Below, piece after piece: positions 7,182 through 45,319 of a stretch of DNA of 64,000 nt. How positions within the stretch are numbered: position 1 is the stretch's first letter; the number at the start of each line of letters is the position of its first letter. The position numbers were made by a program, and so were the translations under genes. The notes beneath the pieces were generated by a model. The model searched no databases and was not told the origin of the DNA. It saw only the letters and a list, made by a program, of their open reading frames with translations. Location of the stretch: contig CAWEJX010000008.1 of the NCBI GenBank assembly GCA_963809485.1, forward strand, positions 352,001 to 416,000, given 5' to 3'. The stretch comes from an uncultured Acidobacteriota bacterium (GTDB taxonomy: Bacteria; Acidobacteriota; UBA6911).

Positions 7182-7700
7182 CTCCCGTTCATAAAATATT
7201 CAAGCGATTCCAGCAATACATTCGTTTCGCCGGCAATTTCTGGCTGATAGGCATAATCAGCCGCCCTCCAGGGGATGGCCAGGATGGACAAGCTGTCTTT
7301 TTGCATGGCCAACACGCCGCCGGAAAACCTTTCCCAATCTTGACGCTCATGCCACTCAGTGCCTGCCGCCGCCCGCATGTGGTATTTCATGCATGTACCG
7401 TTGTGAATTGCCAAAATATGCTTCCTATGGAATGCACGATATGAGCGCTGGAAATCCCATTAAGCCGTTGATTTCGACACTGATTGCAATTTTATCCCAT
7501 ATTGGGACAATATATCCTGGAATTTTTACAGGTCTGAACTTATCAGCCGGATTTTGGACTCAACGGAGGAAAGTCATAATTCCATGCATGCTGAACTGGG
7601 AAATTAGTTAGCCTGATCCTGGATTTGGACACTATGGGGCTGTTTAAGACATAATTCTCTAATGGGGACTTCAAAACTAATTATCATGGAGGAATCGCGC

Positions 7701-26524: not shown

Positions 26525-27040
26525 ATTCTCCTTTGCCCGGCAGCCCATGTGTGGACCGCCGTCTGCAGTGCATCCTGATTTCCTATACGATATAGCATAT
26601 TATATAGGATTCTAAAATGCCCTAACCAGGCAGTCAAGCGAATTGTTGGGCGCCATCGGCCAGTTTTGTGACTCGAGAACCGCCGTATTTGCCCTCCCGC
26701 CCGGACTAGAAAATGATGAGTTTCCCGAGCTGCCGATATGGCAGGCTGAGCCATCAGACCGCAGGGGTCGGTCAGGACCTTCCGAATGCCCACCGTCACT
26801 TCTAAGATGTTGCAGTATAGGTGCGCGGGCGCGCGCCGATGCGCCCAAAATCCCTTTCAAAAGCCATAATTTCAGGTTAGGATGCCACCGAATTCGACAA
26901 AGGGGGCAATTTATAACCCCGAAATTTACATAAGGCATACTTATCGGAAGTTTATGAGGCGGCCTGCCGCCGGGCGAATTCATAAATGGCCGGCAGCTTA
27001 TGCTATCCCCCCAAGAATACATCGAGAAAAGGGGCATGAC

Positions 27041-28366
27041 ATGGCAGCGTTCAAATCCAGGGAAGAACTCATCGCCGCTGAAAAGGGTCTTAAAGAAGCC
27101 ATCGAAAGGAAACACGGCAAAACCGCCGAGGAGCTTTGCCTGGAGCGGGAAAAAAGGATTGACGCTGCGATGCGGCTGAAAGAGCCGGACCGTGTGCCGG
27201 TGGTTTTCTGGGATGTTCCTTTGCTCGCCTGCCGCTATGCCGGGCTGCCCTATTCTGCCGCCTATTACGACGCCCCCGCCTGGAAGGCAGCCTTCAAAAC
27301 GATGCTAGCCGACCTTGAACCCGACGGCTGGGCGGTAGCCGGCCGCGAATCGGGCGCGGCGCTGGAAGCCACCGGCACCAATTTCACCCGCTGGCCAGGC
27401 GGCAATCTGCCCCCCGACGTCGGCAACCAGGTAGCCGAACAGGAATTCATGAAAGAGGACGAATACGACCATTTCCTGGCCGACCCTTCCGACTTTATCG
27501 TGCGGGTCTGGCTGCCGCGGGCCTACAGCTCGCTTCAGCCGCTGGCCAAACTGCCGCCGCTGATGGACATGGGGACGGGCGTGGCTGCGATGGGCAGGAT
27601 GTTCGCCGCGGGACAATTCGAGCAGCTTATCGGGGCGATGAAGGCTGCCGGCGCAGCGGCGGCGAAATGGGAAAGCGAGATGGGGCGCATGGATGTGGAG
27701 ATGGCCTCCCTGGGTCTTCCGGCAGCGCCGCTGTCCTTCGGCGGCGTAACCCCGCCTTTTTCGAGCTTCAGCAACAATTTCCGCACCTTCCGGGGGGTGG
27801 CGCTCGATATGTTCCGCCGCCCGGAGAAGCTCAAGGCTGCCCTGAACAAGCTACTGGAATACCGGATCGCCACTGCTGCACCCCCTGTGAAAAAGGAGGG
27901 AAAACTGGCCGTGGGCAGCGCCAGCGAACCCCACCGGGTTTCCGACGAATTTCTTTCGCTGAAACAATTCGAGGAATTCGTCTGGCCTTTCTGGAAACGG
28001 TCCATCGAGGCCACGCTTAAACTCGGGTATGATGTCAACTGGATGTTTTTCGAGGGGCGCCGCGATAAACAGCTCGAGTATTTCGCCGATTTCCCGAAAG
28101 GCAGTCTGATGATTTTGTTCGAGAGAACGGATATTTTCCGGGCCAAGGAAATCCTCGGAGACCGCGTCTGCCTGATGGGCAATGTTCCTCTTTCCCTCCT
28201 CCAGCTCGGTTCGCCTCAGGAAGTCGAGGATTACGGCAAGAACCTAATCAAGGTTTGCGGCAAGGGCGGCGGGTTTATCCTGGCCAACGGCGGCGGTATC
28301 TATGACGCCAAACCGGAGAATATGCGCGCTATGGTTGAAACCGTCCGGAAACACGGATGGTACTAA
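27041..28366 (+). CDS. Uroporphyrinogen decarboxylase/MtaA-CmuA methyltransferase family protein
   Basis: EPDRVPV, FLSLKQFEEFVWP, CLMGNVP, GGGFILANG, KPENMRAM. Confidence 0.88.
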   Translation: MAAFKSREELIAAEKGLKEAIERKHGKTAEELCLEREKRIDAAMRLKEPDRVPVVFWDVPLLACRYAGLPYSAAYYDAPAWKAAFKTMLADLEPDGWAVAGRESGAALEATGTNFTRWPGGNLPPDVGNQVAEQEFMKEDEYDHFLADPSDFIVRVWLPRAYSSLQPLAKLPPLMDMGTGVAAMGRMFAAGQFEQLIGAMKAAGAAAAKWESEMGRMDVEMASLGLPAAPLSFGGVTPPFSSFSNNFRTFRGVALDMFRRPEKLKAALNKLLEYRIATAAPPVKKEGKLAVGSASEPHRVSDEFLSLKQFEEFVWPFWKRSIEATLKLGYDVNWMFFEGRRDKQLEYFADFPKGSLMILFERTDIFRAKEILGDRVCLMGNVPLSLLQLGSPQEVEDYGKNLIKVCGKGGGFILANGGGIYDAKPENMRAMVETVRKHGWY

Positions 28367-28438: not shown

Positions 28439-29770
28439 CTAGAAGTTTTTGTCGTAAGCCAGGTCCCTTTTCAGTGTTCTGGCAGCCAGCAGAAAATGTA
28501 TGGCCGCCCATAGGGTTGCGACAATGACAACCATCAGAATCGCATATCTCAGCGAATCATTGCCATACCGCGGCTGCATGGAATCACTTAATGCGCCGAC
28601 GACCAGCGGCCCCACGCCCATGGAAATCAGGTTTACAAAAAAGGCATAGATCGCGGACGCCACGGCACGCCGGGCCGATCCCGCAATACCGAGCAGCATG
28701 GACATCGTCGGGCCAAGATACATGTGTCCGAGAAGAGTCGGGAGGATCAGGAAAAGCAGGGCCGGTATGGGAGCGGGCCAGAGATATACCAGGAAAACGA
28801 CAGGGACAGCGACCAGGATTCCGGCGCTGGAAATCCACATATACCAGCGTGGATCCTGAGTTTTCCGGAACATGCGATCGCCCATTGCACCTCCGAGGAA
28901 TGCGCCGCAGGCTCCGGAGATCCCGAAGACGAAGGCAAGCCAGGTTCCCGTTTCGCCGCTTGTCATTCCGTGCGAGCGCATGAAAAATGAAGGCTGCCAT
29001 ATTCCCGCTCCCCAGCCGGAAAGGCCATAGAGAGCCGCGGCGAAAATTAGATGAAGGGAGGCAGGCCTCTCCCACAAGTAGCGCAATGTAGTCAACACAG
29101 GGGGTGCCGGAGCTTGCGGCTGCAAAGTATCGTGGAATCCGCGCGGCGGTTCACGCACAGTGAGCCTGAGAAGTATCGCGACCGCGATACCCGGCAATCC
29201 AACGACCATGAAAGCCGCGCGCCAGCCGAAAAACTGATTGACCCAGCCGCCAACCAGGAATCCCGTTAGTACCCCCAGCGGCACCCCCATACCCTGCACG
29301 GCCAACGCCGTGCCTCGCCTTTCCGCAGGGTAATAATCCGCTAAAATCGAATTCGACGCCGGCGAGCTTCCGGCTTCACCGATCCCGACACCGACGCGTG
29401 CCAGAAAAAGCGATATGAATCCGGTAGCCAGGCCGCACACAGCCGTCATACCGCTCCACAGGCAGAGAGTCACGGCAATTATATTTCTTCTATTAACTCT
29501 ATCCGCAAGAGAAGCGATAGGAATTCCCACAATAGAATAGAATACCGCAAAGGCCAATCCTCCCAGCATTCCGAGCTGAGTGTCCGTAAAGCCGAACTCC
29601 AGTTTGATCGCCTCCAGCAATACGGCCATTATCTGTCGGTCCACGAAGTTGAGAACTGAAATAATCAGCAGCAGTACTACAACATACCTGCGCTCCATTT
29701 CTGTGATTCTGAAGGCGGGCAGGTTCCCTGCTCTGAGAGTTTCCCTTGCGGCTGCAGCATCCACAATCAT
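28439..29770 (-). CDS. MFS transporter, spinster family
   Basis: NFVDRQ, LADRVNRR, RVGVGIGEA, FGWR. The start may be ATG 29698. Confidence 0.9.
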   Translation of the reverse strand: MIVDAAAARETLRAGNLPAFRITEMERRYVVVLLLIISVLNFVDRQIMAVLLEAIKLEFGFTDTQLGMLGGLAFAVFYSIVGIPIASLADRVNRRNIIAVTLCLWSGMTAVCGLATGFISLFLARVGVGIGEAGSSPASNSILADYYPAERRGTALAVQGMGVPLGVLTGFLVGGWVNQFFGWRAAFMVVGLPGIAVAILLRLTVREPPRGFHDTLQPQAPAPPVLTTLRYLWERPASLHLIFAAALYGLSGWGAGIWQPSFFMRSHGMTSGETGTWLAFVFGISGACGAFLGGAMGDRMFRKTQDPRWYMWISSAGILVAVPVVFLVYLWPAPIPALLFLILPTLLGHMYLGPTMSMLLGIAGSARRAVASAIYAFFVNLISMGVGPLVVGALSDSMQPRYGNDSLRYAILMVVIVATLWAAIHFLLAARTLKRDLAYDKNF

Positions 29771-30286: not shown

Positions 30287-31942
30287 TTATCGCCCGGCCT
30301 TGGTCATGGTCGCGCCCGTGATCTTTTTTGTGACATGGGCAACCGTCTCGTAGCTCCACAACAGGGAATAGCCCGGCACACCGCCGGCCACGGTAATGGA
30401 AAAATTCTTTTCCGGTATGCCGGTCTTTTGAGCAAACCAAGCCTGTACATCCTTGCTGGTTTTATAACCCATTTTTGCTAAACCTTGAGCACATTCCGGG
30501 TGAAACCATACCAGATAGCCCCCTCTGCCTTTGCCGATCGATTTAATCATACCGTCCAAAATCCCCTGCTCCGTCCAGATAGCGACCGCTCCACCTCCAA
30601 ACATATTGGCCCCAGATCCACCATAAGAGCCGACCTTGGTCACCGTCACTGTACTGTCTCCCTTGGCAAAACCCTGGCTTACCTGATAGGGGTCCCAGGG
30701 GCTCATCTCTTCATTTTCGGCAAAGGTGTAAAAGGTATGCGGCGACGTCCGCCCGGTCAGGGCCATGTCGTTCTCCGCCGGCCACGTGTGACCAATATTG
30801 CGCGTCGCTAATCGAACGGACCGTCCAATGGTATTATTGGCGCGCCAGCAATCGCCCAGGTAACCAATCCCCGAATTCATGTTGATTTCCTTAGCTATTG
30901 GACCGTTCACCTGAATGGCAAGAGTAAAGGCACCCGCCGATCCCATCATGTGCCAGAATCCCATCCCGGTGTACCCTGGCGCCACAAATGCCTCCATCGC
31001 CGCGATTACCACTGGAAAGTACTCCGGCTTTGCTCCCGCCATCACCGCGTTGATCGCAATCTTTTCAATAGTGGCCGTGCCGGATTTCATGGGGATTTTG
31101 CCTATCACTTCGCTCGGGGAACGACTCGTCCCTTTGAGCATCCGGGCAACGGCTTCCCTGGTCGGGGGCACCAGAGGCAATCCATCGCCCATCTTGTTTT
31201 CGAGAAACGACGCGTTGAACTTTTCCACCGCGTCCTCATAACTATCGCCCGTAATGCGAACGGGCGGGTATTCGACTGCGGATCTTGTCTGAGGCTTCGC
31301 CTCCTCTGCTGTCAGAGGCTTCGTCAGTGCATCCACAATGGGATTAAAAGCGGCTTCAACGAGGGGTCTTAACTCTTGTACCGTTCCCCGAAGCCTGTAC
31401 CATTTTTCGGAAGGAAATGTTACCATCCGCATGTTGGGCATCAACCAATCAGCAGCGGCTGATTTTGCGTCCTTCAGGAAATTCGAGCTGACCAGAAGTA
31501 CTCCAGGCGCTCCATACTTTTCCATCTGCATTGTGCGGCGGGAACCCCACCACGTGCAGGTCCCTCAGTCTCCCATCGCATATACAAATGCATCGCATCC
31601 CTTCGCGATCGACTGAAAATGCTCTTCCTGTGCCTGTGCCTGTATTCCCGGGTTAAATCCTCGCTGAATAGTTACGCCCGGATACTTCTGCTTCAGCATT
31701 TCTTCCAGTATGTCAAATAGCTGCGGCACACCCGGTTTGATGTTATGCACCAGAGCAATCTTCTTACCAGAGTAATCCGAAAGACGAGGCCTCAGTGCTA
31801 AAAATGGCTCAGGCTCAATCACGCCCATGGGATTGAGCAGCTCCAAAGTAACCTTTTCGTTCGCCGGCCCGGCCTTCGACCACCCGCCAAAAAATAAACC
31901 GGCGGTCAGCAGCAAAAAAGCCGCTAAGATTTTATTTCTCAT
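30287..31942 (-). CDS. UGSC-family secreted selenoprotein (551 aa, Sec126 at TGA 31565..31567, motif GD-U-GTC)
   Basis: ORFs 31565..31942 and 30287..31531 are in frame and joined by GTCTWWGSRRT. UxxC motif; strong hairpin after the UGA; signal peptide; C-domain DGLPLVPPT...NAVMAGAKPEYFPV. Confidence 0.9.
31527..31558 (-). promoter_or_regulatory. Putative bacterial SECIS element
   Basis: TGCA-C-GTGGTGGG-GTT-CCCGCCGC-ACAA-TGCA: 8-bp upper stem with two G-U pairs; loop 20-22 nt after the UGA. Confidence 0.75.
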
Positions 31943-32068
31943 TCTTGTCTCCTTATTGGTTATCGCTAAATACGGGTTATCTCCCGTTTATTTCATCACT
32001 TACTGATAAGCACGGTCATCATTTGTTGAACTAACATCCTATGGTACTTCAGAATACAAACTTAAGGA

Positions 32069-33034
32069 TTAAGCGCAGGCCAGTATCGCTTTCTTTACCA
32101 TCCCCGCGGCTACCTGAATCTTCCACTTGTTCAGCGTCAGCGCCCTCGCTCCCGTGACCGCAGCCGTGCCGGCCGCCTGCGCGCTCGCCACATCGATCGT
32201 CTTGCCCGCTATGGATTCCTCCGCCTTAGTTGCCCGGTAGGGTTTGTTATATACCGCATTGAGGCATATCCTGGCCGTTCCGCCGCCAATGGCAGCCGCA
32301 CAATTCACAATGGGAAAGTCTATCGACGATCTCAGCGCGAACTTTACAAAGGCGCTTTTGACGCCGGAAGCCGGCGCGGGAACCTGAATCTCCTTTACGA
32401 TTTCGTCGTTCTCGAGCACCGTGGAACGAGGGATCTTTACCGCCCAGAACTCCTCGGCGTTGATCGTTCTCTTCGATGTCACTATCCTGGCATTTAAGGC
32501 GACCAGCGCCGGCGCCGTATCGCTTGGATTCACAGCCATGCAGGCTGAAACACCCCCGAATATCGAGTGGTATCGATTCTCGCCGGCCATGGCGAAGCAC
32601 GTTTTGCCGCCTTTCCTGATACAGAAAAACCTGTTGTCGTGGAGCCGGAAATACCAGCAGCGGTTGAGCTGGCAGATGTTGCCGCCGATCGTGCCCATTT
32701 CCCGGATGTGCGGCGAAGCGGTTTTGTGGGCCGCCTCCGACAGCGCTGCCCACTTGCTTTTGACGACACTGCTCTTCGCTATATCCTCCAGCCTGGTCAG
32801 GGCGCCTATCCGCAGCATGCCCTTTTCTTCTTTGATGTAATCCAGGCTGGGCGTTATGGTCTTGAGGTTTACCAGAATCTGAGGATACATGGTATCCGGG
32901 AGTACCTCAAACCTCATGGTTCCCACAAGATCGGTGCCCCCGGCAAGTGCCCAGGCATTGGCTGTACGCAGGGCCGACACCGCCTCTTCCACCGTCTTGG
33001 CATTCATTCGGGTGAATTTCCTTACGGTCTTCAT
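32069..33034 (-). CDS. Xanthine dehydrogenase family FAD-binding subunit (PaoB/YagS-like, with 4Fe-4S insert)
   Basis: AGGTDL, RIGALTRL, ASPHIREMGTIGGN, RCWYFR...CIRKGGKTC...C.AVNPSD. Confidence 0.93.
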   Translation of the reverse strand: MKTVRKFTRMNAKTVEEAVSALRTANAWALAGGTDLVGTMRFEVLPDTMYPQILVNLKTITPSLDYIKEEKGMLRIGALTRLEDIAKSSVVKSKWAALSEAAHKTASPHIREMGTIGGNICQLNRCWYFRLHDNRFFCIRKGGKTCFAMAGENRYHSIFGGVSACMAVNPSDTAPALVALNARIVTSKRTINAEEFWAVKIPRSTVLENDEIVKEIQVPAPASGVKSAFVKFALRSSIDFPIVNCAAAIGGGTARICLNAVYNKPYRATKAEESIAGKTIDVASAQAAGTAAVTGARALTLNKWKIQVAAGMVKKAILACA

Positions 33035-33048
33035 TTTTGTCTAAGCTC

Positions 33049-35395
33049 CTATCCTTTGCCCAGCGCTTTTAGGATCCTGTCCGGGGTGATCGGTTCAATG
33101 TCCACATACTTGCCTATGGCGTTGTATACGGCCGTAGGTATGATCGTGTGGTTGCACGCGCCGCCGTCTTCCCCAATGCCGCAGCTCCCATAAGGGGCAT
33201 ACGCCAGACCCGTTTCCACATAGGCGCACTCAATCGACGCGACGTCATTCATCACATTCACCGGGTACCCTATCAGGTTGTCGTTCAGTACCACTCCTGT
33301 TTTTGGATCGTGATACACCGTCTCTTTGCTGGATCTCCCGAGCCCCATATAAGCGCCGCCGTACTGCTGGCCGTTAAACGCGTCCGGGTTTATTACTTTG
33401 CCTCCGTCATTGACGCTAACCTGTTTTTTTATTTCTATCCCTCCCGTATCGGGGTCTACCTCTATTTCCAAGAAATGCGCTTGCCGGACCATGCTGTACT
33501 CATGTCCCACACCGCCACGCCCTGTGTGACCGGGAGTATAGTCCCATACATACAAGTCATAGGTGGATGCGGCCGCCACTTGCGCCAGTGTCTTTTTATT
33601 TTCCGGGTTCGCCTTTTCAAAAACCACGCTGTCCTTGATGTCCAGTTCTTCAACCTTTTTATTCGGGAAAAATGCAGGCATTTCCCGTGACAGATTTCCC
33701 AATGTCCTGCGCCGGGACGGTGGCACAACTACTTTTTCAAGGATCAACTGCTTCATCTTCCGCGCGGCTCTTGCCGCTGCCAGATTACTTCCGCTCATCC
33801 CCTGGGATCCGCCCCCCGGCTCCGATACAAGACCGTCGCGGCCTTCGAAGGGTCTTATCCGAACGTCTTTATAATTGGCTCCCATTTCATCGGCCACGAC
33901 CTGGCAGTAGGCGGTCTGTCCAACAACGCCTCCATCACATTGCGTTGCCAGGATATTAACCGTTCCATCGGCGTTCACTCTGATGCCTATGCCGGCAGTC
34001 CCCACCGTATGCGCCCACTCGACGGTCGAGACATAGCCCATCCCGTGATAATTCCCATTGGGCAGAATTTTGGTCCCGGGCAAGTGCCATTTTTTATCCC
34101 ACTCCATAATTTTCTTACCCAGTTCATTCACCTCTTTGAAACTGTCTCTGTCCGTGTTAAATCCCTGCGGCTTCCGGACGTGTTCGTTGGCATACGCCCA
34201 GTCGTGGCCTTCGCAGCCCTCATTGATCTGGGCGATCTTGCTTGGATCCATCCCCAGTTCGCCGGCTACGTGCTCCCATACCTGGGTTACCACTCTGACG
34301 CTCGAGGAACCATGCTTGAAGCACTGAATGGGCGGCTTTGTATGAGCCGCCACATCGCACGTAATGTATATATTGGGAATCCTGGTGCCTTTGTGTATTT
34401 TAACGGTACTGGCTTCTGTGACCCAGGCTTCGTAGCATTTCAGCTGTACGGCCGTGATGCGGCCATCCAGTTTGAATCCCACTTTAAAATAGTAGCGCGA
34501 CCGGGCGTCCTCGTCACAGCCCTCGAAGTGACTGTCATCGTCCAGAACTTTTACCGGGCACCCCGTTCGCCTGGCAGCGATTACAGCCACCTGAGCTGTT
34601 TGGGGGGCCGCGCGCATATTACTCGAACCTCCAAAAAATGCTCCATTATAGGGTAGGTACAGATGGATCTTGTGCACAGGGCTGTATTGTCGCAGAGCAT
34701 CCATCGCGTACAACCAGTTCTGGCCGTGATGCCAAACATCCAGATAGTCTCCCCTGCATTCCGCCACTCCGACATGTGCCTCTACCCCGGCCCACACGTC
34801 CTGATCATCACCCGCTACCCATTCGACTACTTTGTCGGCCTCGGCAAACCCTTTTTCAACATCCCCAAACTTGACAGGAGGCTGCCTCGTCTTATTGTTC
34901 GACTTGGGATTTGTGTCCGGGCGCATTATTGGAGCGCCCGGCTTCAACGCTTCCTCAGGGTCCAGGATCACCGGCAGCTCTTCCATCTCGAGTTCTATCA
35001 GTCGCAATGCCCGGTCGACTATCGCCTCGCTTTCGCCTACCACCACAGCTCCCACCATCCCCCGATACCAGTGGTTCGTGTCGGAGACAAGCGGTTTGCC
35101 CTCATACTTAGGCCAGGTTATCCCGGGATCATCATATCGAAGTACCGCTCTTACTCCGGGAAAAGCCTCGGCCTTGCTGGTATCCAGGCGTTTGATCTTA
35201 GCGTGACCGTAGGGGGATCGATAGAAACTTCGCATACAGCATCCCCGGACGGTATATGTCCCTGGTATACACGGCACTTCCGCTCGCTTTTTCATAACCA
35301 TCCAGACGCCGTACGCGGCGTTTCCCGATCACGCCGCCTTCCGGCACCGGCCAAAGCCAAGGATATAAGGGTTCTCCCTCTTTCAGACCGTACAT
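33049..35395 (-). CDS. Xanthine dehydrogenase family molybdopterin-binding subunit, one frameshift near 35225
   Basis: N-terminal RRLDGYEKASGSAVYTRDIYRPGMLYAKF (35198..35395) continues in another frame as RSPYGHAKI. Also GAFFGG, DGGKVINP, GQQYGG, GIGE. Confidence 0.88.
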
Positions 35396-35410
35396 TTTCT
35401 CAGCCCTCCT

Positions 35411-36073
35411 CTAGGCGCTCCCAATGACTTCCTTAACGGCTATTATGTGTTGTGTGTATGTGCCGCACCGGCATATGTTGCCCCCCAGCGCGTCCCTTAT
35501 ATCTTCCTCCGTCGGCCTGGGGATACGATCCAGCAACGCCTTGGCGGTTACCACAAATCCCGGCGTGCAGTAGCCGCACTGCATGCAATGGTTCAGAACG
35601 TAAGCCTCGATGAGTTGCGGAGTGTTGATGGCAACACCTTCCGCCGTCTCTATTGCCGCGCCGTCACAATCCGCCGCAAACGTCATGCAGGAAAGCACCG
35701 GCCGCCCGTTCATAATCACCGTGCAGGACCCGCAGGCTCCGTAACCGTTGCACATATCCTTGATGGACAAAAAGCCCAGCTGATCGCGAAGCACATCGCG
35801 CAGCATCCACTCCGGCTCAACCCGAAGCTCATACCTATGCTTGTTCACCGTGAAATTTATCGTTTGGGCAGCTGCCGAGGAGGCCAGTGCGAGGACGCCC
35901 GCCGGAGCGGCTCCGGCCCGTTTCGCTGCCTGGGGACCAGCGGCAACCACATTGGCGCCCGCCCCTGTACCGAGGATGGCTACGGAGCTGACAGCAAATT
36001 CCCGGCGCGATATCGGTCCCAATCCTGTTCTGTCACTTTCCCGGGTTTTCTTTTTTTCTTCCTCTTTCGACAT
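35411..36073 (-). CDS. (2Fe-2S)-binding subunit with Tat signal (PaoA/YagT-like)
   Basis: SRREFA; CNGYGACGSCTV...SC; QCGYCTPG; NICRCG. GGAGGA precedes ATG 36073. Confidence 0.93.
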   Translation of the reverse strand: MSKEEEKKKTRESDRTGLGPISRREFAVSSVAILGTGAGANVVAAGPQAAKRAGAAPAGVLALASSAAAQTINFTVNKHRYELRVEPEWMLRDVLRDQLGFLSIKDMCNGYGACGSCTVIMNGRPVLSCMTFAADCDGAAIETAEGVAINTPQLIEAYVLNHCMQCGYCTPGFVVTAKALLDRIPRPTEEDIRDALGGNICRCGTYTQHIIAVKEVIGSA

Positions 36074-36507
36074 TGCACTCCTCCCTTTCCTGCCCTTTTT
36101 GTCTCCCAAAACCGAATCTATCTCGGCGTGCCCGCCTTATGCGTCGTGCCTGCCGGAACTCGATATGTCTATGGGGCAGTCTCCGGTGTACGTGCGAGCA
36201 TTTTATCACTCTGCTATGCTAAATGGTCTCTGCCGCGAAACTGCTTTGCGCTGCGCGAAATGTGGCGCCTCTTGTTTTATTGTTCGACATCCTAAAAATG
36301 AATCCGGGCAACTATTATGCCGTCCTCTTGATGAATTCAGCTTAACCAAGCCCCATTCGGAATCTCGATGAACGGTAATTCCTGGGGAGCCTTTGTTCAA
36401 ATCCCGCAATTGTAATCAACGTCTGACCTTATATCGGCTCGCACTTCCCTCGCACTTTCAAAGATCTCGTCGTTCACAATAGCACGTTTGAAAGCATAGT
36501 TTCCTAA

Positions 36508-36539
36508 TTAGCTGTTTAGGTTTAGCTGTTTAGGTTTAG
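36508..36539. repeat. 14-bp tandem repeat (about 2.3 copies)
   Basis: TTAGCTGTTTAGGT twice, followed by TTAG. Confidence 0.85.
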
Positions 36540-36541
36540 TT

Positions 36542-36586
36542 TTGTCAAGATAAATGTTGCATTGCATGCAACATTTATCTTGACAA
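36542..36586. promoter_or_regulatory. Perfect 21-bp inverted repeat carrying TTGACA on both strands (divergent promoter/operator)
   Basis: TTGTCAAGATAAATGTTGCAT-tgc-ATGCAACATTTATCTTGACAA. Confidence 0.7.
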
Positions 36587-36674
36587 TGCAAAAGGCAACC
36601 TGCTAAATGCTTTTCGATCATGCAGGCTTTTTCATTGCGCACGATTTTAAGGTTCTAATTGCTGGAGGCTTATT

Positions 36675-39600
36675 TTGGGGAGGTTACATCGCATGCGGTC
36701 AATGATCATTGCAGTTTGCTGTTTGCTCGCGGTTGCCGGAGCGGCGTTTGCCCAAGGCGATCGGGGCACCATTACGGGAACCATAACCGATCAGGCAGGC
36801 GCGGTCATACCCACTGCCGCAATTGAAATAAAAAACATCAGTACCGGCGCCGTGTATCAAGCGCAAAGCTCTTCGACGGGCAATTACACAGTCGGCCAAT
36901 TGCCTGCCGGCACGTACCAGATGTCATCTTCGGTGCCCGGATTCAAGCAGTTCGTAAGAACGGGCATCACGGTTTTAGTGGCGCAAACCTTGCGCATCGA
37001 CATTTCACTCCAGGTGGGCGCCATCAGCGAGACTGTCACCGTCAACGCCGATGCTCCCCTGTTGAGGACGGAAAGCGGCGAGTTGGCGCACAATGTCGCC
37101 GGAGATACTCTGAATGAGCTTCCCATTCTGGGATTTACGGGATATTTGCGCGATCCCTTCGCCGTGGCGACTTTGGTCCCGGGCGCGCTTTATGAGTCGA
37201 GCATGGTAAACAACATACGCATGAATGGGGCTCCCTCGAACACGCAGGGGTTCCGGATCGAGGGCCAGGACTCAACCAACGGATTGTTTTCAACGTACAC
37301 GTCGTGGAGCCAACCGTCCGTGGATGCGGTCGAGGAGTTCGCGATTCAGACCAGCAACTTTGCCGCCGAATACGGGCAGGCGGGGGGCGGTTTGTTCAAT
37401 GTAACCATGAAATCCGGCACCAATGCGTTGCACGGAAGCGCGTACGATTATTGGTACAATGAAGCATTCAACGCCAGTTCGCCCTACGGCCAAAAGGACC
37501 GTCAGCGCCGGCACGACTACGGTTTCACGCTGGGAGGTCCCATTTATATTCCCAAAGTGTACAATGGGCGCGACAAGACGTTTTTCTTTTTCAACTTTGA
37601 GCAGTTCCGGGAGAAGAGTGTTGACAACACCACCCTGTTCACGGTTCCCACAATGCGCATGCGCCAGGGAGATTTCAGCGAGGTGTTGACCGATGCAACC
37701 GTGAAAACCGCTGATGGAGTTACTACTATCCACGAAAACCAGCTCTACAGACCCGGGACAGAACGTACGTATGTCGGGCTTGACGGAAAGAGTTACCTGA
37801 TGAGAGATCCGTACCCGGGCAATGTGATTACGGACCCGCTTAACAGCAGTGCGCTGGCAATCCAGGAGCTGATTCCCGAACCTGCGGGCCCCTACAAGGA
37901 CGACTTGACGGGCAACTATGTTGTTCCGTGGGAAAAATACAATTATAGGACCATTCCGAGTGTGAAGATCGACCACAACTTCGGTACCCGCTCAAAGCTT
38001 TCAGGCTATTGGAATCAAGCGCGCTACGACACCAACTCTGTAAACTGCGACAGCCTTTACTTGATCAGTCCCACTACTGCCTGCACGATTTCTACTACCC
38101 GCACCAACATGGTGCGTTTGAACTACAGCTTAACCCTGACGCCGACAGTGCTGCTGTATCTCGGCGCCGGCCTCCAGTTCACGGATTTTTGGAACTCTAC
38201 CCCCTTTCAAAATTTCGATCAGCAAAAGGAACTCGGCATACCGCAGCCGAAGGGGGCTGAGGGCAAAATCTTCCCCAACCTTAGAGGGCTTTCCACGACT
38301 TACGGCGGATTTTATACAAACCCCAGCGGCCAGGGCCCGGGGATCGATCAGCACCGGAATTTGACCAAGCCGACCGCGAATGCCAGCTTAACTTGGGTCA
38401 AAACCAACCACACCTACAAATTCGGCGCGGAATTGCGCCTCGAGGGATATCCGACCGATCTGGTGCACCCCTCCTACGGCCACTATACATTTTCCAACAC
38501 GCAAACCGCGATTCCCGATTCTGCGTACGTCAAAACCCTTTCAGTGGGTTTCCCATACGCGAGTTTCCTGTTGGGACAAATGAGTAGCGTCTCCATTGGA
38601 GCCCCCGCCGATCCCCGCGTAGGAAAGTCGTCATGGGCTTTGTTCGCTCAGGACAGCTGGAAGGTAACCCGCAAATTCACTCTGGATTACGGATTGCGCT
38701 GGGATTACCAGGGCTATTTGAAAGAGACTTACGGCCGGGTTGCCAATTTCTCTCCCACCACTCTGAATCCCAACGTCGGCAATCTGCCGGGGGGCATGAT
38801 TTTTGAAAGAGACGAGGTGAAATTCGCGGACGTTTACGCCTTCGCGTTCGGTCCGAGGTTGGGAGCGGCTTATCAGATCACGCCCAAGACGGTGCTCCGC
38901 GCAGGATGGGGCATCAGCTACGGGCAGACCGCCACCGATAACGGGACAATGGTAACTGCTGGCGGCGCCGCTGTAGGATATTCAGCTCCCTCCTATGGTG
39001 CGGTATGGAGGACGCTGGACCAGGGAGCGCCGGAATCGTCAACGGGAATGTACGTATGGCCCATTGTGGACCCCGGCTATTTAAATACTTCACCCACACC
39101 CGTAACAGCAAGCCCTGCCGCGTTCGATAGAAATGCGGGCCGGCCGCCGAGGCAGATCATGTGGAGCATTAGCCTCCAGCGGGAGATTACCAAGAACCTG
39201 ATGGTGGAAGCCTCATACGTCGGCAACCGCGGCGCCTGGTGGGAGGGCAACGAACTCATCCGCGTGAATTCGATATCGGCGGAGCGGCTTGCCTCCTTTG
39301 GGCTCAGCCTTGACAATTCCAACGATAGATCCCTTTTAGCCGGCACAATGAATTCCGCGGCGGCAAAGAGCCGCATAAATCCGGTCACAAATCTTCCATT
39401 CAGCACTCCGCCTTACACCGGCTTCCCAACCAACCAAACCGTCGCCCAATCGCTGCGGCCGTTCCCGCATTTCGGAACCATCAATTATAGATGGTCGCCG
39501 CTCGGCAGGACCTGGTATGACTCGCTGCAGATCAAAGTGACCAAGCGGTATTCCCACGGGCTTGACCTGACCAGTGTGTTTACCTGGCAGAAAGAACTGG

Positions 39601-40352
39601 TCATGGGGTCGGAATCAACAGGCTCACAAGGAGGAACAACCGGCGGAATCGTAAACAACGTGTTCGACCGCCATGTCAACAAGTACATGTCGAGCTATTC
39701 CCGGCCCATCGTATGGACCACCTCGCTGAGCTACACGTTGCCGAAACTGGATACAAACAAGGCGCTGTCGTGGGCGATTCGCGATTGGAATATCGGCCTT
39801 GTTTTGAATTACACCAGCGGCAGAATGATTCAAGTTCCAGCAGCTTCATCAACCAGCGTGACCTCCCTCTACACCTTCCAAAACACCTTCGCGAATCGGG
39901 TTGAGGGTCAACCGTTGTTTATACGGACTGTGAAAAACGCTGATGGGACCCAATCCACGATGCCCCTCAGCGGCCTCAATGAAAGAAGCGCATTTGACCC
40001 GCTCACGGATTTTGTATTGAATCCGGCGGCCTGGAAAGATCCGATCCCGGGCCAGTACAGCTACTCGCCGGCATTTTATAGCGACTACCGGTACCCGCGT
40101 CAGCCTGAGGAAAAGGTGAGCATAGGGCGGACCTTCCGGCTCAGGGAAGGGATGAGACTGTCTATTCGGGCCGACTTCAATAACATATTAAACCGCATGG
40201 TATTGAGTAACAGCCTCTTAACGAGTACCAGTGCAATAGCCCCCCAGACTTGGTCGAGCTCAGGCAGGACATCCTCCGGCTTTGGACGCTACAACGCGGC
40301 TAACGCCAACTCGCAGCGCAGGGGCTTTATAGTCGCCCGTTTTCAATTTTGA
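36675..40352 (+). CDS. TonB-dependent receptor (Oar-like, N-terminal carboxypeptidase-regulatory-like domain)
   Basis: Signal peptide, GTITGTITDQAGAVIP, PSVDAVEEF, KSGTNALHGS, FAQDSWKVT, C-terminal RFQF. Confidence 0.95.
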   Translation: MGRLHRMRSMIIAVCCLLAVAGAAFAQGDRGTITGTITDQAGAVIPTAAIEIKNISTGAVYQAQSSSTGNYTVGQLPAGTYQMSSSVPGFKQFVRTGITVLVAQTLRIDISLQVGAISETVTVNADAPLLRTESGELAHNVAGDTLNELPILGFTGYLRDPFAVATLVPGALYESSMVNNIRMNGAPSNTQGFRIEGQDSTNGLFSTYTSWSQPSVDAVEEFAIQTSNFAAEYGQAGGGLFNVTMKSGTNALHGSAYDYWYNEAFNASSPYGQKDRQRRHDYGFTLGGPIYIPKVYNGRDKTFFFFNFEQFREKSVDNTTLFTVPTMRMRQGDFSEVLTDATVKTADGVTTIHENQLYRPGTERTYVGLDGKSYLMRDPYPGNVITDPLNSSALAIQELIPEPAGPYKDDLTGNYVVPWEKYNYRTIPSVKIDHNFGTRSKLSGYWNQARYDTNSVNCDSLYLISPTTACTISTTRTNMVRLNYSLTLTPTVLLYLGAGLQFTDFWNSTPFQNFDQQKELGIPQPKGAEGKIFPNLRGLSTTYGGFYTNPSGQGPGIDQHRNLTKPTANASLTWVKTNHTYKFGAELRLEGYPTDLVHPSYGHYTFSNTQTAIPDSAYVKTLSVGFPYASFLLGQMSSVSIGAPADPRVGKSSWALFAQDSWKVTRKFTLDYGLRWDYQGYLKETYGRVANFSPTTLNPNVGNLPGGMIFERDEVKFADVYAFAFGPRLGAAYQITPKTVLRAGWGISYGQTATDNGTMVTAGGAAVGYSAPSYGAVWRTLDQGAPESSTGMYVWPIVDPGYLNTSPTPVTASPAAFDRNAGRPPRQIMWSISLQREITKNLMVEASYVGNRGAWWEGNELIRVNSISAERLASFGLSLDNSNDRSLLAGTMNSAAAKSRINPVTNLPFSTPPYTGFPTNQTVAQSLRPFPHFGTINYRWSPLGRTWYDSLQIKVTKRYSHGLDLTSVFTWQKELVMGSESTGSQGGTTGGIVNNVFDRHVNKYMSSYSRPIVWTTSLSYTLPKLDTNKALSWAIRDWNIGLVLNYTSGRMIQVPAASSTSVTSLYTFQNTFANRVEGQPLFIRTVKNADGTQSTMPLSGLNERSAFDPLTDFVLNPAAWKDPIPGQYSYSPAFYSDYRYPRQPEEKVSIGRTFRLREGMRLSIRADFNNILNRMVLSNSLLTSTSAIAPQTWSSSGRTSSGFGRYNAANANSQRRGFIVARFQF

Positions 40353-40387
40353 TCTTCAGTCTGACGAATTGCGCTTCGCCGATCCTT

Positions 40388-40428
40388 TCCAGGCCCTAGC
40401 CGCCGTATTTGTGAGGCAGGGCCTGGAA
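40388..40428. terminator. Stem-loop between convergent genes
   Basis: TTCCAGGCCCT(a)GCC...GGCAGGGCCTGGAA. Confidence 0.45.
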
Positions 40429-40549
40429 CCTCAAATCAATGTCCTGGTCAATTAGAAGATCTCATACAGGGTGAGGAGACAGCTCGGCAGGCTGGCCGGA
40501 CCGCAAAGAAGAATTGGTGGTATTACTCCCTCCCAGCTATACCCGGCAC

Positions 40550-40597
40550 GGAGCTGTCAAACTCCATGAGTCCCCCGGCAGAGCCGGGAGTTTACCA
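40550..40597 (-). mobile_element. IS200/IS605-type left-end relic
   Basis: Minus strand GGTAAACTCCCGGCTCTGCCGGGGGACTCATGGAGTTTGACAGCTCC. Confidence 0.7.
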
Positions 40598-40665
40598 ATA
40601 GAATTATCCCGGATTCCGAAGTTGGTAATAAAAAAAGGCAGCGGCCAAGCAGCCGTTTACGCTTT

Positions 40666-42027
40666 TTAATTGCTGGAAGATGTTTGGAACACGCTCCGGA
40701 ACATCAGAACTCCCACGACACACATCGCAACCGGGATAACCAGCATCCCAAGCACTGCGAATGGTGCGACCTGCATTTGGATGATCCATCCGCCTATCAT
40801 CGGACTGAGAATAGCCCCGATGCGCCCAACGCTGGCCGCCCACCCGATGCCTGTCGCGCGAATGAGCGGGGGGTAGTAGATTGCGGAAAGAGCATTGAGA
40901 ACAAACTGGCTTCCGGAAATGCCGCCGCCGACCACGAGAAGCAGCACCCACCAGGATGGGCCGCTCGACGGCAGCAGGGCGAAGAGTCCAAGTGCTACGG
41001 CCGTAATAATGTATGCCGTAAGCATAGCCATCACTGTTTTCCCTTTGTCTACGCACCAGGATAGAATCAGTCCTCCGACCACGCCGCCCGCCTGGATCAT
41101 TACGGCACCTTTAGGCGCCTGCGATGCGGTCCAGCCCTGCGTTGTCAGGAGCGTCGGCAACCAGTTGACCAGCAGATAAAGGACGAACATATTGAAGATG
41201 AAAACCATCCATAGCAGAAGTGTCCCCCTGCGATAGGTCTCGTTCAGCAGTTCTGTAATAGATTGTTTATGGATTTCAGGTCTTTTTGCATAGACTGTCT
41301 GCGGATCGGTTCCCGGTGCCAGCCGGGCGAGGATTTTTGTGATGCGCGGATCGTTCGGCCGGCTCGCCAGCAGGAGTTTGATCGATTCCGGAATGGCGGC
41401 TGCCAGAAGGACACAGAGCAGAAGGGGAATTACACCACCGATGGTGAACATACCTTTCCAGCCGAATCTTTCAATGATGATGGGAGCCACGAATCCCGAG
41501 GTAAAGGCTCCAATGGGCACTCCGGAAAACATCAGTGTCACCAGGGCAGCCCGCCGCTTGTTCGGAAGATAATCCGAAGTCAGCGCCGTTGCGTTTGTCA
41601 GGCTTGCGCCGAGCGCCAGGCCGGTCAGGAATCGCCAGACCAGAAGTTGCGTTGTGTTGCTGGCGAAACTTGTGGCGATGGACGCCAGCCCGAGGAAAGC
41701 CATGGAGGAGATCAGCAATATTCGCCGGCCGAATCGATCGCCCAGCGGAGCCAGAAAGGCTCCCCCGATTGCGATACCAAAAAGTGCCGAAGCAAGCACC
41801 AGGCTGAAATCAGAGGATTTAATGGACCATTGAGCGGAGAGCGCCGGTACAATAAGCGCCATGCTCTGAATGTGGTAGCCGTCGAGCCAGACCACCAGCG
41901 CGCTCAGGATCATTACGGTTATTTGAAGCGAGGACAGGTTTCTTTGATCGATCAGCTGACCGATCTCTATTTTATGGGCGCGATTCGATTCCACAATGGC
42001 ACCTTTCAAATTAGCTTGGGTACACAC
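40666..42027 (-). CDS. Aromatic acid:H+ symporter family MFS transporter (PcaK/BenK-like)
   Basis: LDGY, LGDRFGRR, RFLTGLALG, PES, WLP, YP..IRATG.GWA..VGRIG. Confidence 0.9.
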   Translation of the reverse strand: MCTQANLKGAIVESNRAHKIEIGQLIDQRNLSSLQITVMILSALVVWLDGYHIQSMALIVPALSAQWSIKSSDFSLVLASALFGIAIGGAFLAPLGDRFGRRILLISSMAFLGLASIATSFASNTTQLLVWRFLTGLALGASLTNATALTSDYLPNKRRAALVTLMFSGVPIGAFTSGFVAPIIIERFGWKGMFTIGGVIPLLLCVLLAAAIPESIKLLLASRPNDPRITKILARLAPGTDPQTVYAKRPEIHKQSITELLNETYRRGTLLLWMVFIFNMFVLYLLVNWLPTLLTTQGWTASQAPKGAVMIQAGGVVGGLILSWCVDKGKTVMAMLTAYIITAVALGLFALLPSSGPSWWVLLLVVGGGISGSQFVLNALSAIYYPPLIRATGIGWAASVGRIGAILSPMIGGWIIQMQVAPFAVLGMLVIPVAMCVVGVLMFRSVFQTSSSN

Positions 42028-42205
42028 GCACAGCTCAACCTGAATCGAGGGGATTATACTTTGAACAGCCTGCTTCGCCGCAACAAATCCACAATCGGGG
42101 ACGTCCCTGATTCACTACCGGAATGCTTCTTCCACTCTTTTCTGTCAGCTGTTTTGCCAACGGAACTGGATCATCGATGTACGGACTGGGTTTTTGCCCG
42201 GCGCC

Positions 42206-43417
42206 CTAATCTGCCTTTTTCAGGACTTGTATGGCTTTGACGTCTCCCGTGGGACAACAAACTTCACAGGCGCCGCAGCCATTGCATTTCAGAGGATCTA
42301 CAACGGGATAGGACTCATAGGCCTCTTTATCCCAGGTAACTTTAATGGCATCGAAAGGGCAGGCGTTCACACAAGCATTACAGTCAGAAATACCAAATAG
42401 ACACAGCGCCCTGTCCAAATGAGCCGAGCCGATGACGTATTTGTTTTTCTGTTCCAGATTTAGGGGCTGCAAAGCCGTGCTGGGGCATACCTTCGTGCAG
42501 GCATTGCATTCTTCATTGCAGTAATCCGTTTCATATCGGACCATGGGCGACAGGAATCCCAAAATTCCGGATTGTCCCGTATCGGGATGAATAATTTTGG
42601 ATGGACAGGCCCGCATGCAGTTGCCGCATCGCATGCATAGCCCTGTAAAAACGCGCTCTTGGGTCGCGCCCGGCGGCCTCAATGGTGCATTTTTAGATCT
42701 TGCCTGCCCAATTTTTTGCGCCCACAAACTGAATCCCAAGCCGGCCGCGACAGCAATAAACTTTCTCCTTGTTCCGGGCAACGCAATTCCAGGCGCAATT
42801 GCCTTTTGAGCATCCGTTCTGCTCGGCTTCCTGATATTTCTGAAGAAAGATCCGACACTTTGCAGGAGATCCTGGGTTGCTCCCAACGGGCATATGCGGG
42901 CGCACCATAGGTCTCCCGAAGTCAAGGCGGTTAACAACACGATAACGATGCCAGACAAGGACAATATGGCCGAAAGGACATTTTTTGAGGCGAAAACCGA
43001 AAATGCGTTGTTTAATAATGCCAGCGGATCCATCCACAAGAAAAGCGGATAACCGATGATTGCCCCCGCGATGGTTATTAACACGATGTAATTGCCTAAG
43101 GGAGGACAGCCTCTCCACCACATCTTAATCGGCAATTTCATGCCTGAAACCCCATCAAGGAGCAGGCCGACCGGGCATACATAGCGGCAGAACCATCTTT
43201 TTCGCACCAGCGCTATTGCAGAAAAAACCAGACCCAGGATTGACTGCACCGGGAATGCTCGCCCTGCCAGGATTGTGCATATTGCGATAAACGAGCTTGC
43301 CTGAACAAATACTCTGGCGATGCCAGTCCAGAAAGGGAGCGGAAGCAGCAAAAGAATCGCAAGCAAAAGGCAACCCAATCTTACATACAGGCGCAGCGTA
43401 CGCCTCTCATTTAGCAT
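42206..43417 (-). CDS. Membrane polyferredoxin, NapH/MauN-like fused to MauM/NapG-like domain
   Basis: RWFCRYVCPVG, LWCARICPLG, LRPPGA and four Cys cluster motifs. Confidence 0.9.
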   Translation of the reverse strand: MLNERRTLRLYVRLGCLLLAILLLLPLPFWTGIARVFVQASSFIAICTILAGRAFPVQSILGLVFSAIALVRKRWFCRYVCPVGLLLDGVSGMKLPIKMWWRGCPPLGNYIVLITIAGAIIGYPLFLWMDPLALLNNAFSVFASKNVLSAILSLSGIVIVLLTALTSGDLWCARICPLGATQDLLQSVGSFFRNIRKPSRTDAQKAIAPGIALPGTRRKFIAVAAGLGFSLWAQKIGQARSKNAPLRPPGATQERVFTGLCMRCGNCMRACPSKIIHPDTGQSGILGFLSPMVRYETDYCNEECNACTKVCPSTALQPLNLEQKNKYVIGSAHLDRALCLFGISDCNACVNACPFDAIKVTWDKEAYESYPVVDPLKCNGCGACEVCCPTGDVKAIQVLKKAD

Positions 43418-43816
43418 CCCGGAAAATCTCCATGTTTGGGAGGTTGATTTTGAATTCAGGCTTTGTCTTTCGAAGCCCGCATTCGTTTTTATAACCGACG
43501 CGGCGACATGGCATGTAAATGGATAGAGTCATAGATCCCAATATTGTCGGATTTTTGCTTAAGAAGAGAACTCCTTTAAATGACCGTCACTCGTTTGTTG
43601 CGGATATATTCCTTTATTGCAAAGAATTGCCTTTTTACAACTCGGCCACTCAGCAGAGCCTTCATTGGGGCGGGGAGGATAGGCGGATGCAAGGCTTGCG
43701 GCCGAGGGCGCTCCGGTGTACCTGGCTGTACGCCGGAGCATCCTCGGTCGCAATACGCAGCAGATGTGCCCGCTGGCGCCGCCGCGGCCAGGGCCCCATG
43801 AATGATCCGGGCCAAT

Positions 43817-45319
43817 TTAGCCGGGCAGAATTGCACCCTGCTTTTTAAGGCTTGCCTGTAACGCCCGGACATTGATTTTTCTCAGATCCACGCCGCTGCT
43901 TATCGCTTGCGCCGCCGCAATCCCCGCTGCCTCTCCAAGGGCGATACAATGCGGTATAAGGTTGAAAAAGTTATTGACAGCGGCATTTGAGGAAAATGCG
44001 CGACAGGCAACAAGCATATTGTTCACCTTTCGAGGTATCAGGCACCGATACGGCATGTAGGTATTAGGATATTTTATCGAATCCTGACCGCGATCGACAT
44101 CCGGGAATATGGCAACGGTGTCATCAAAGGGAACGCTCGTATTCATATCCTTATCCGTAAGCAGGTATTCTCCGACAATTCTTCTGGCACCTCGAGTGCC
44201 GAGCTGCGGGTTGGTCAGCACGATGTAGCTTTTTTCGAAACCGGGAATATTCTTCTTGTAATAGTCGTGGCTTATCAACATCTCTTGCCGGCCTAAAAAC
44301 TCCACCCGCGTTAGTTCCTCAACATCCACCTGGCTGGAATTCGCGTAGCGGGGAAAAACCCAAACCAGATCGTCCTGGTCTTTTAAGTTGCTGGTGATAA
44401 ACCCGGCGTGCCCTCCGCGTTTTCTGATCTCACGCATTTTTTCGGCGAATGCCTTGCCTTGGGCCTTTCTGTAATCCTGATATTTTTTCAGATCGACGCC
44501 TGCTATCCAGTAGGAAAAGGACAGGTTCGAAATCCTCATAGAGGGGTCGATATCACTCTTAAATTCGGCCCCTGAATAGGGCAACAAGTCCCCATCGCCG
44601 GTGGCATCAATGACTACTTTGGCCAGCACCGCCTGCCTGCCTGACTTGCTCTCGAAGATGACGCCTTTTGCCGTATTGCCCTCCATGATAGGCTCCGTGC
44701 CCCATGAATGAAGATACGTCTTAACGCCGGCTTCTTTCATCATTTCCTGCAGGATGCATTTTGATATCTCGGCATCAATGTGCACGGAGTAAATAACCGT
44801 TTTCTCGCGAACGTTAAAAAAAGAACGGCTCTCGTAATAGGCAACCAGCTTGGGGTCCTTTGAGCCCCAATGCTCCTTCTTCGGGTGATCCGCCGCATCC
44901 CTGCGTTTCAGCCGATCTATCCACTCCTGGTTGATGCCGGCTATCTGTTGCTTGCCGCTAAAGTCGCTCAAGTTGGGGATAATGGTCACCAGCCCGCCGG
45001 TGGCCATACCCCCCAGGTGTTCATACCTTTCAATAAGAACCGTATCCGCGCCGCTCCGTGCCGCCGTCAGGGCTGCGCCGATACCGCCTGGTCCGCCGCC
45101 CACAACCACAACATCGGCTGTCCGGCAGACGCGCGTCCGCCGAGCAGCTTCGCTGATTGTCTTGCCCGATGTTTGGGGGGGCGACTTTTTTGACTGGGCG
45201 GACAGCGGCAGCGCCAAACCGCCGGTGCCGACAGCAAAGGCCGCGGCCCCTTTCATAGCCGTATTCTGGAAAAACTTCCTGCGAGTTATTACGGTTTCCA
45301 CTTCTTCTGACAATTTCAT
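43817..45319 (-). CDS. FAD-dependent oxidoreductase with Tat signal
   Basis: TRRKFF; DVVVVGGGPGG, LGGMATGG, IDATGDGD, PYRCLIP, GEAAG. Confidence 0.92.
   Translation of the reverse strand: MKLSEEVETVITRRKFFQNTAMKGAAAFAVGTGGLALPLSAQSKKSPPQTSGKTISEAARRTRVCRTADVVVVGGGPGGIGAALTAARSGADTVLIERYEHLGGMATGGLVTIIPNLSDFSGKQQIAGINQEWIDRLKRRDAADHPKKEHWGSKDPKLVAYYESRSFFNVREKTVIYSVHIDAEISKCILQEMMKEAGVKTYLHSWGTEPIMEGNTAKGVIFESKSGRQAVLAKVVIDATGDGDLLPYSGAEFKSDIDPSMRISNLSFSYWIAGVDLKKYQDYRKAQGKAFAEKMREIRKRGGHAGFITSNLKDQDDLVWVFPRYANSSQVDVEELTRVEFLGRQEMLISHDYYKKNIPGFEKSYIVLTNPQLGTRGARRIVGEYLLTDKDMNTSVPFDDTVAIFPDVDRGQDSIKYPNTYMPYRCLIPRKVNNMLVACRAFSSNAAVNNFFNLIPHCIALGEAAGIAAAQAISSGVDLRKINVRALQASLKKQGAILPG

Follow-up and report, generated by a model that had tools for sequence, protein, structure and literature searches.

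We analysed a window of 64,000 nucleotides from an uncultured Acidobacteriota bacterium (contig CAWEJX010000008.1, positions 352,001 to 416,000) and found in it a four-gene unit on one strand, which by its sequence combines an enzyme of the xanthine dehydrogenase (XDH) family, predicted to be exported by the twin-arginine translocation (Tat) pathway, with a long-form UGSC selenoprotein (UGSC-long) that has a putative signal peptide. The pairing of XDH-type and UGSC-long genes is a real gene linkage that is limited to one clade. The unit lies on the reverse strand and runs from the gene for the 2Fe-2S subunit with its Tat leader (FeS gene, 35411..36073), through those for the molybdenum-pterin (Mo) subunit (33049..35395, with a broken reading frame) and the flavin (FAD) subunit with a four-cysteine loop (32069..33034), to the selenoprotein gene (30287..31942; 551 aa, predicted exported).

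A preliminary description of this region had proposed a system of four parts: an outer-membrane receptor, the XDH-type enzyme, the selenoprotein and an aromatic acid permease. Domain searches and open reading frame (ORF) reading recovered all four gene types in the described order, and the 126-bp same-strand gap between the FAD and selenoprotein genes was likewise present (31943..32068). On the coding strand of this spacer, a scan for consensus sequences revealed nothing resembling a promoter or a terminator, although host promoters may differ from the consensus; the one hairpin match (31972..31987) scored on the opposite strand. The scan returned fewer sites than its shuffles did, which makes this weak evidence.

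To place the pairing in its genomic context we used the source metagenome-assembled genome (MAG; 6.04 Mb, 21 contigs, contamination 7.3%), here called G000; other G numbers denote the genomes of relatives, L numbers fetched loci and C numbers contigs. The Pfam UGSC model PF24696 gave 58 matches in G000, with exactly one in-frame TGA in 40, two in one and none in 17. There were 59 UGSC-long gene models, 37 of them with selenocysteine (U), and a crude rule flagged an export signal in 31; 45 of the 59 are concentrated on three contigs. Searches of the same genome with tblastn gave 36 XDH-type clusters and 35 receptor loci. At 4 of 16 FAD loci, a UGSC-long gene followed the FAD gene on the same strand within 600 bp. 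The permutation null for this adjacency had a mean of 0.038 and reached four in 0 of 3000 permutations, with the proviso that it places genes at random and ignores the clustering of paralogues on three contigs. The linkage of the selenoprotein gene to XDH-family genes, as previously suggested, is thus non-random. The four loci (C8, C12:125k, C20:505k and C10) represent no fewer than three lineages of XDH and four subtypes of UGSC, and three of them are on contigs with few paralogues. XDH Mo subunits were also the largest recurrent neighbour family of the UGSC paralogues (14 ORFs near 11 paralogues). The window contains a second exported long-form UGSC selenoprotein gene (7662..9419, forward strand; 585 aa, U153 in GHUSLC; PF24696 62.3 bits), which has no adjoining XDH gene.

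Of 30 genomes from the genus, only four (G000, G006, G015 and G023) had operons with an FAD subunit at least 89% identical to that of the window. Among such operons, a UGSC-long gene lay directly behind the FAD gene in five of the seven that could be evaluated: C8 and C12:125k of G000, a 91% orthologue in G006 (L024), G015 (L045) and L085. No UGSC gene followed the FAD gene in C12:141k of G000 or its G006 orthologue (L044). In G023 (L046) a UGSC gene is directly upstream, and the contig stops 252 bp past the FAD gene; the C20:1 operon of G000 sits at a contig edge. The linkage was therefore not unique to one genome, which the preliminary description had named as a result that would refute its proposal; the pairing was found also in G006, G015 and L085. 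The last of these has the order FeS, Mo, FAD, a K-type UGSC gene, a flavoprotein gene, the W-type UGSC gene (90% identity) and another flavoprotein gene. It is contig LJUC01000020.1 of a MAG labelled Phycisphaerae, with proteins 90–92% identical to those of the source Acidobacteriota genome; judged from these sequences, this probably reflects a binning error or, less likely, a recent transfer.

More distant selenoprotein homologues (42–45% identity, tblastn) showed no orthologous arrangement. For the C20-type selenoprotein, which itself stands in an FeS-Mo-FAD-UGSC order (C20:501-507k), a search of 29 other genomes yielded no orthologue with more than 72% identity. The UGSC family itself was expanded in all 24 genus genomes searched, with 9–35 matches each, and was present in 2 of 16 genomes from other genera of the class. 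Among 80 loci with 10-kb flanks, an XDH-type match was found in four: two from G006, L085 and L087, the last being a contig of a MAG labelled Deltaproteobacteria on which the genes run UGSC (62% identity), TetR, FAD, FeS, Mo and major facilitator superfamily (MFS) transporter. The XDH-free loci were mostly cytoplasmic selenoprotein forms of SAR202-type Dehalococcoidia, together with split cysteine (Cys) forms of Actinomycetota.

A second association of UGSC genes, with flavoprotein genes, extended further. Of 29 other genomes, 23 have a single-copy orthologue of the cytoplasmic Cys-form UGSC-long paralogue on C10. At 11 of 14 loci fetched from 13 genomes across the genus, this Cys-form gene precedes, on one strand, a PF12831-like flavoprotein gene and then a gene for an 820-aa XDH-family Mo subunit, and the flavoprotein beside the Cys-form gene is kept in 13 of the 14. 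This UGSC-PF12831-Mo unit (L016 4298..9985, from G000 C10, and L173–L186) has no adjoining FeS or FAD subunit genes. In L085, PF00890 flavoprotein genes flank the 90% selenoprotein orthologue. The cultured actinobacterium Nesterenkonia flava JCM 14814 (L151 7113..13003) carries a split Cys form, consisting of a 181-aa UGSC gene and a 368-aa partner gene, with a LigAB ring-cleavage dioxygenase, an MFS transporter and a PF12831 flavoprotein as neighbours; a PF12831 flavoprotein likewise adjoins the UGSC gene of a Nocardioidaceae MAG. As N. flava is in culture and has the split form near LigAB and PF12831, a genetic test is feasible there.

Codon 126 of the selenoprotein gene is TGA (31565..31567) and would encode U126 in the sequence GDUGTC, giving the motif U126-G-T-C129. 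Residues 35–178 matched PF24696 with 86.8 bits against a cut-off of 25. The NCBIfam equivalog NF041046, a model of the short UGSC form with 147 positions, was not reached (71.8 bits against 125). We assign the protein to the long form of the known UGSC family. Its U/C-x-x-C motif is at the family's conserved position, with D125, position 126, G127 and C129 invariant across nine paralogues. The N-terminus reads MRNKILAAFLLLTAGLFFGGWSKAGP, and by eye residues ∼1–24 resemble a Sec-type signal peptide; they are followed by the UGSC domain (35–178), a linker helix and a C-terminal domain of ∼330 residues. No Pfam family matched this C-terminal domain, yet it is well conserved. Its conserved motifs include DGLPxVPPT, NAVMAGxxPEY, ANxTIGRA and AENExxSPWEP, and the residues kept throughout the domain are Asp, Arg, Asn, Glu and Trp.

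A scan of 1.84 billion representatives gave 4420 relatives of the selenoprotein at E 1e-3 and 676 at E 1e-30. Many of the 4420 matches cover only residues from about 140–250 onward; a start near residue 140, seen in many relatives, is what would be expected if gene callers had truncated selenoprotein genes at the UGA. In the Protein Atlas the selenoprotein fell only with clusters that are unannotated or automatically named ‘thiol-disulfide oxidoreductase’. Selenocysteine decoding of the gene is plausible: the source genome encodes selA, selB, selD and one tRNA-Sec, and a hairpin resembling a selenocysteine insertion sequence (31526..31559, reverse strand) begins 6 nt past the UGA, although its folding energy (−19.8 kcal/mol, z −1.1) is not significant alone. 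The selD match (G000 C8:80982..81905) holds one in-frame TGA, so selenophosphate synthetase is probably itself a selenoprotein in G000.

The AlphaFold model of the whole selenoprotein had a pLDDT of 92.2 and a pTM of 0.90, and the C-terminal domain alone a pLDDT of 93.0. The modelled N-terminal domain resembled generic flavodoxin/Rossmann-like folds (best Z 10.4, 136 aligned residues, root-mean-square deviation 4.6 Å, 8s7v_H), and no thioredoxin was among the structural matches listed for it. With the whole model, Foldseek returned generic alpha/beta matches to the N-terminal domain only, with TM scores of at most 0.21. For the modelled C-terminal domain there was no Foldseek match at E 0.001, the best being class I fumarate hydratase (E 2e-3, TM 0.25), and VIA-align gave a Z of at most 6.7, across 79 residues. 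These fold matches are too weak to name a fold, and they do not imply that the fold is novel either.

Turning to the enzyme, the 2Fe-2S subunit carries the twin-arginine motif ISRREFAV and matched Pfam Fer2_2 with 83.5 bits. Its gene has an ATG at 36073 preceded by a GGAGG ribosome-binding site; the ORF caller had placed the start at a TTG at 36109. The closest solved relative of the Mo subunit was the alpha subunit of 4-hydroxybenzoyl-CoA reductase (1rm6_A, E 3e-37), and the best Protein Data Bank matches of the FAD subunit were 5y6q_B (E 4e-31), 5g5g_B (E 4e-30) and 1rm6_B (E 7e-27). The four-cysteine loop of the FAD subunit, which we take to bind a [4Fe-4S] cluster, aligns with cysteines of PaoB (5g5g_B) and of the medium subunit of Methylobacillus aldehyde oxidase (5y6q_B); it also aligns with cysteines of HcrB (1rm6_B), three of the four being aligned in the stretch displayed.

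The enzyme thus shares a PaoB-type loop with Escherichia coli PaoABC, as well as a periplasmic setting without an NAD-type acceptor. It is not an orthologue of PaoABC by curated scores: the FeS subunit gave 107.7 bits against the PaoA cut-off of 322 (NF008514, leader region included in the match) and the Mo subunit 154.3 against 1180 for PaoC, and the best solved relative of the latter is the reductase subunit named above. The gene order also differs, being FeS-Mo-FAD in the window and FeS-FAD-Mo in E. coli. Another difference is that the window operon has no XdhC/PaoD gene; the only XdhC_CoxI gene found for the 36 XDH-type clusters (two matched stretches in one 375-aa frame) lies outside it on contig C1 (G000 C1:213991..214506). 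Three subunits and a Tat leader on the 2Fe-2S subunit are common to both enzymes (PMC3958847).

The scarcity of XdhC-type chaperones raised the alternative that UGSC-long proteins replace them as maturation factors of XDH-family enzymes, acting for instance in the sulfuration of their Mo cofactor. A single chaperone gene for so many clusters, and the conserved operon with a lone Mo subunit, would fit such a role. We rejected it mainly because the Sec-type signal peptide points to export in an unfolded state. In addition, the Mo cofactor of Tat substrates is inserted in the cytoplasm before export, and most family members have no Mo-enzyme neighbour. A maturation role is thus highly improbable.

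The Mo gene of the window copy contains one extra base near 35217..35224, outside any homopolymer run: the window reads AAGTTTCTATCGATCC where the paralogues have AAGTTTCT-TAGATCC. Frame A comprises 65 codons and ends in PGMLYAKFLSIPLRSR followed by a stop codon, and frame B holds the remaining 750 codons. Four other clade-A-like Mo genes of the source genome are uninterrupted (780–782 aa), and the L085 orthologue is an intact ORF of 781 aa. We considered whether the locus is decaying, with a true frameshift, an inactive enzyme and a selenoprotein that works alone or with paralogous enzymes. The extra base against four in-frame paralogues speaks for this, as does a sister locus, C12:154k, which together with its G006 orthologue keeps two intact selenoprotein genes next to the remnant of an operon from which the FeS and FAD genes have gone. 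An XDH cluster on C10 is likewise fragmented. However, the source MAG consists of 21 contigs with 7.3% contamination, so that the frameshift could be an assembly error, and all other genes of the unit are intact. Contigs from public runs gave no informative cover of the site: the best holders carried 0.23–0.31 of the sampled words in pieces of 61–435 nt, with no insertion/deletion row and none shown spanning the frameshift, and an RNA run among them gave 6 small pieces. The probability that the locus is decaying appears to us not far short of even. The C10 cluster (G000 C10:28416..34510), which lies upstream of the UGSC gene on that contig, is broken up into numerous short ORFs, through either gene decay or local assembly errors.

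Given the two kinds of neighbour, we tentatively infer, with a confidence that falls somewhat below an even chance, that the selenoprotein may be a periplasmic two-electron redox client of flavin-bearing dehydrogenases. This reading draws on the recurrence of flavoprotein and Mo-enzyme neighbours in three configurations, on the absence, to our knowledge, of pyridine nucleotides and hence of an NAD-type acceptor from the periplasm, and on the fact that the acceptor of PaoABC was still unidentified in 2014. Reducing equivalents from the substrate of the Mo enzyme would exit through the FAD subunit or its four-cysteine loop and would reduce a U126-C129 selenenylsulfide of the UGSC domain, and the reduced domain would then power the chemistry of the conserved C-terminal domain. 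By analogy, this would carry the scheme of thioredoxin reductase and thioredoxin over to a compartment that lacks NAD(P)H. At other loci, the role of the XDH enzyme would fall to PF12831 or PF00890 flavoproteins or to lone Mo subunits.

Several observations weigh against the redox-client reading. Most paralogue models in the source genome (55 of 59) are not directly behind an FAD-subunit gene, and at 37 less closely related FAD loci in the genus (53–71% identity) no UGSC gene stands right behind the FAD gene. Outside the genus, 76 of the 80 loci with 10-kb flanks have no XDH-type gene; the suggestion that the proposed system would provide a functional context for the UGSC family is accordingly not supported for the family as a whole. 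G006 retains an orthologue of the K-type selenoprotein (SEL-K) without an XDH copy beside it, and the remnant at C12:154k, which keeps its selenoproteins, indicates that a partner encoded in cis is dispensable. A universal second Cys is absent from the conserved residues of the C-terminal domain, so that its chemistry need not be thiol-redox, and the Mo gene of the window copy is, in the assembly, frameshifted.

Some of these points suit instead a picture in which UGSC-long proteins are stand-alone enzymes, brought next to XDH genes by island shuffling and segmental duplication in catabolic islands rich in oxidoreductases. The 6 Mb of the source genome contain 59 UGSC-long models (45 of them on three contigs) together with 36 clusters of XDH type and 35 loci for receptors, and the immediate neighbours of UGSC paralogues are mostly one-off families. 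The clade-A operons of the source genome are recent duplicates (87–92% DNA identity). The solitary SEL-K of G006 and the lack of a C20-type orthologue above 72% identity fit this picture too. Shuffling does not readily account for the observed four of 16 adjacencies, which no permutation reached, nor for the three cases on contigs with few paralogues; the UGSC-PF12831-Mo order kept in 11 of 14 loci and the further case in the MAG labelled Deltaproteobacteria also argue against it. We regard stand-alone function as possible, at appreciably less than an even chance.

Beyond the FeS gene, and ∼600 bp from it, the divergent outer-membrane beta-barrel receptor gene (36675..40352, forward strand; CarboxypepD_reg, OMP_b-brl_4) was found as the preliminary description had placed it. 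Its barrel matched PF25183 with 487 bits and PF00593 with 42.7 bits; no plug family was matched in Pfam at E 0.001, and no more sensitive search was made. From its sequence and orientation it is a separate divergent unit of the acidobacterial CarboxypepD_reg type, one of the 35 such loci. Receptors were within 1, 3 and 8 kb of 3, 3 and 6 of the 36 XDH clusters, against null means of 1.5, 2.3 and 4.2, and the same permutation analysis of the source genome gave no receptor enrichment near UGSC genes. The proposed linkage of a TonB-type receptor to XDH genes is therefore at chance level. An inverted repeat between the FeS and receptor genes (36521..36607; 42-nt arms, 81% complementary) had matches in both orientations in L164, L014 and L086; conserved upstream of receptor paralogues and orthologues, it may be an operator.

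The permease (40666..42027, reverse strand) only partly bore out its earlier designation as AAHS-type. Its best family was indeed AAHS (TIGR00895), at 332.2 bits, which is below the cut-off of 418.55; PcaK gave 282.8 against 770. It ends an operon that converges on the receptor gene (40666..45361, reverse strand), after genes for a PF12831 flavoprotein with a Tat signal (43817..45361, TRRKFF) and a NapH/NapG-like fusion (42206..43417). From its gene content this operon may be an electron route between the quinone pool and the periplasm. It also occurs in G006:C97 and G015:C5, where the stretches fetched matched neither XDH nor receptor; in G006 the NapH/G part has shrunk to a fragment.

In favour of a system in which the receptor takes up an aromatic compound, the enzyme oxidizes it in the periplasm with the selenoprotein as partner, and the permease imports the resulting acid is that all four genes lie inside 12 kb. 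A receptor gene is also divergent from the Mo gene in the paralogous copy C12:154k and in G006 (L025/L086), and AAHS-like homologues (62–66% identity) adjoin other XDH-type operons in G015 and G012. Against this stand the chance-level receptor adjacency and the position of the permease in an operon of its own, whose linkage to the unit is not conserved. The operon stretches fetched from G015, G023 and L085 had no receptor or AAHS match, and G015 and G023 gave no receptor match at E 1e-200. In G006 the XDH, receptor and permease units are on three contigs, and the sequence upstream of the promoter region of the receptor orthologue (94%, on the third) has no match to the FeS gene. In relatives the XDH and selenoprotein pair recurs and the receptor and permease do not. 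We therefore consider the four-part system very unlikely; receptor and AAHS-like permease are separate transcription units whose proximity is incidental.

On the other side of the unit, a second MFS transporter gene (28439..29770) lies 517 bp downstream of the selenoprotein gene on the same strand and is syntenic in G006 (L084, 95% identity). A URO-D/MtaA-like gene occupies 26882..28366 on the forward strand; members of its family are near five UGSC paralogues of the genome (four ORFs).

The family and its long form are already known; the association with molybdoenzymes and flavoproteins is newly described here. Zhang and Gladyshev (2008) described a UGSC/Unknown_1 fusion, in which a UGSC domain is joined to a conserved domain of unknown function, suggested a thioredoxin-like fold for UGSC and listed PrdB with a UxxC motif (PMC2398784). 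The window protein has the same plan of an N-terminal U-x-x-C domain fused to a conserved domain, the latter perhaps being the ‘Unknown_1’ of that paper; it differs in its export signal, in having UGTC instead of UGSC and in the position of its gene behind a molybdoenzyme operon. In the portions of the literature searched, no association of the UGSC family with XDH-type molybdoenzymes or with PF12831/PF00890 flavoproteins was found. Thioredoxin reductase/thioredoxin, PrdB and GrdB offer a likeness in that a flavoprotein gene stands beside a small alpha/beta domain with U/C-x-x-C, an analogy of mechanism only; unlike thioredoxin, the UGSC N-terminal domain is modelled with a flavodoxin/Rossmann-like fold.

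In the Global Ocean Sampling data, UGSC-containing proteins ranked with the selenoprotein families of greatest abundance (PMC2398784), a 2026 review still lists the function of the family as uncharacterized (PMC13188914), and the final acceptor of electrons from periplasmic PaoABC was still to be identified in 2014 (PMC3958847). The reproducible link to XDH-family and PF12831/PF00890 flavoprotein genes provides concrete partner candidates for UGSC, and bears on the long-standing gap over the electron acceptor of periplasmic xanthine-oxidase-family enzymes such as PaoABC (PMC3958847). It would be a bolder and rather unlikely generalization that long-form UGSC proteins are, on both sides of the membrane, dedicated selenol/thiol two-electron modules for flavin and Mo dehydrogenases. 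If this generalization is true, the exported UGSC forms would give the periplasm a reductase system based on selenium and independent of NAD(P)H, an acceptor would be named for periplasmic XDH-family enzymes, and a selenoprotein family that ranks among the most abundant in environmental metagenomes would have its first function.

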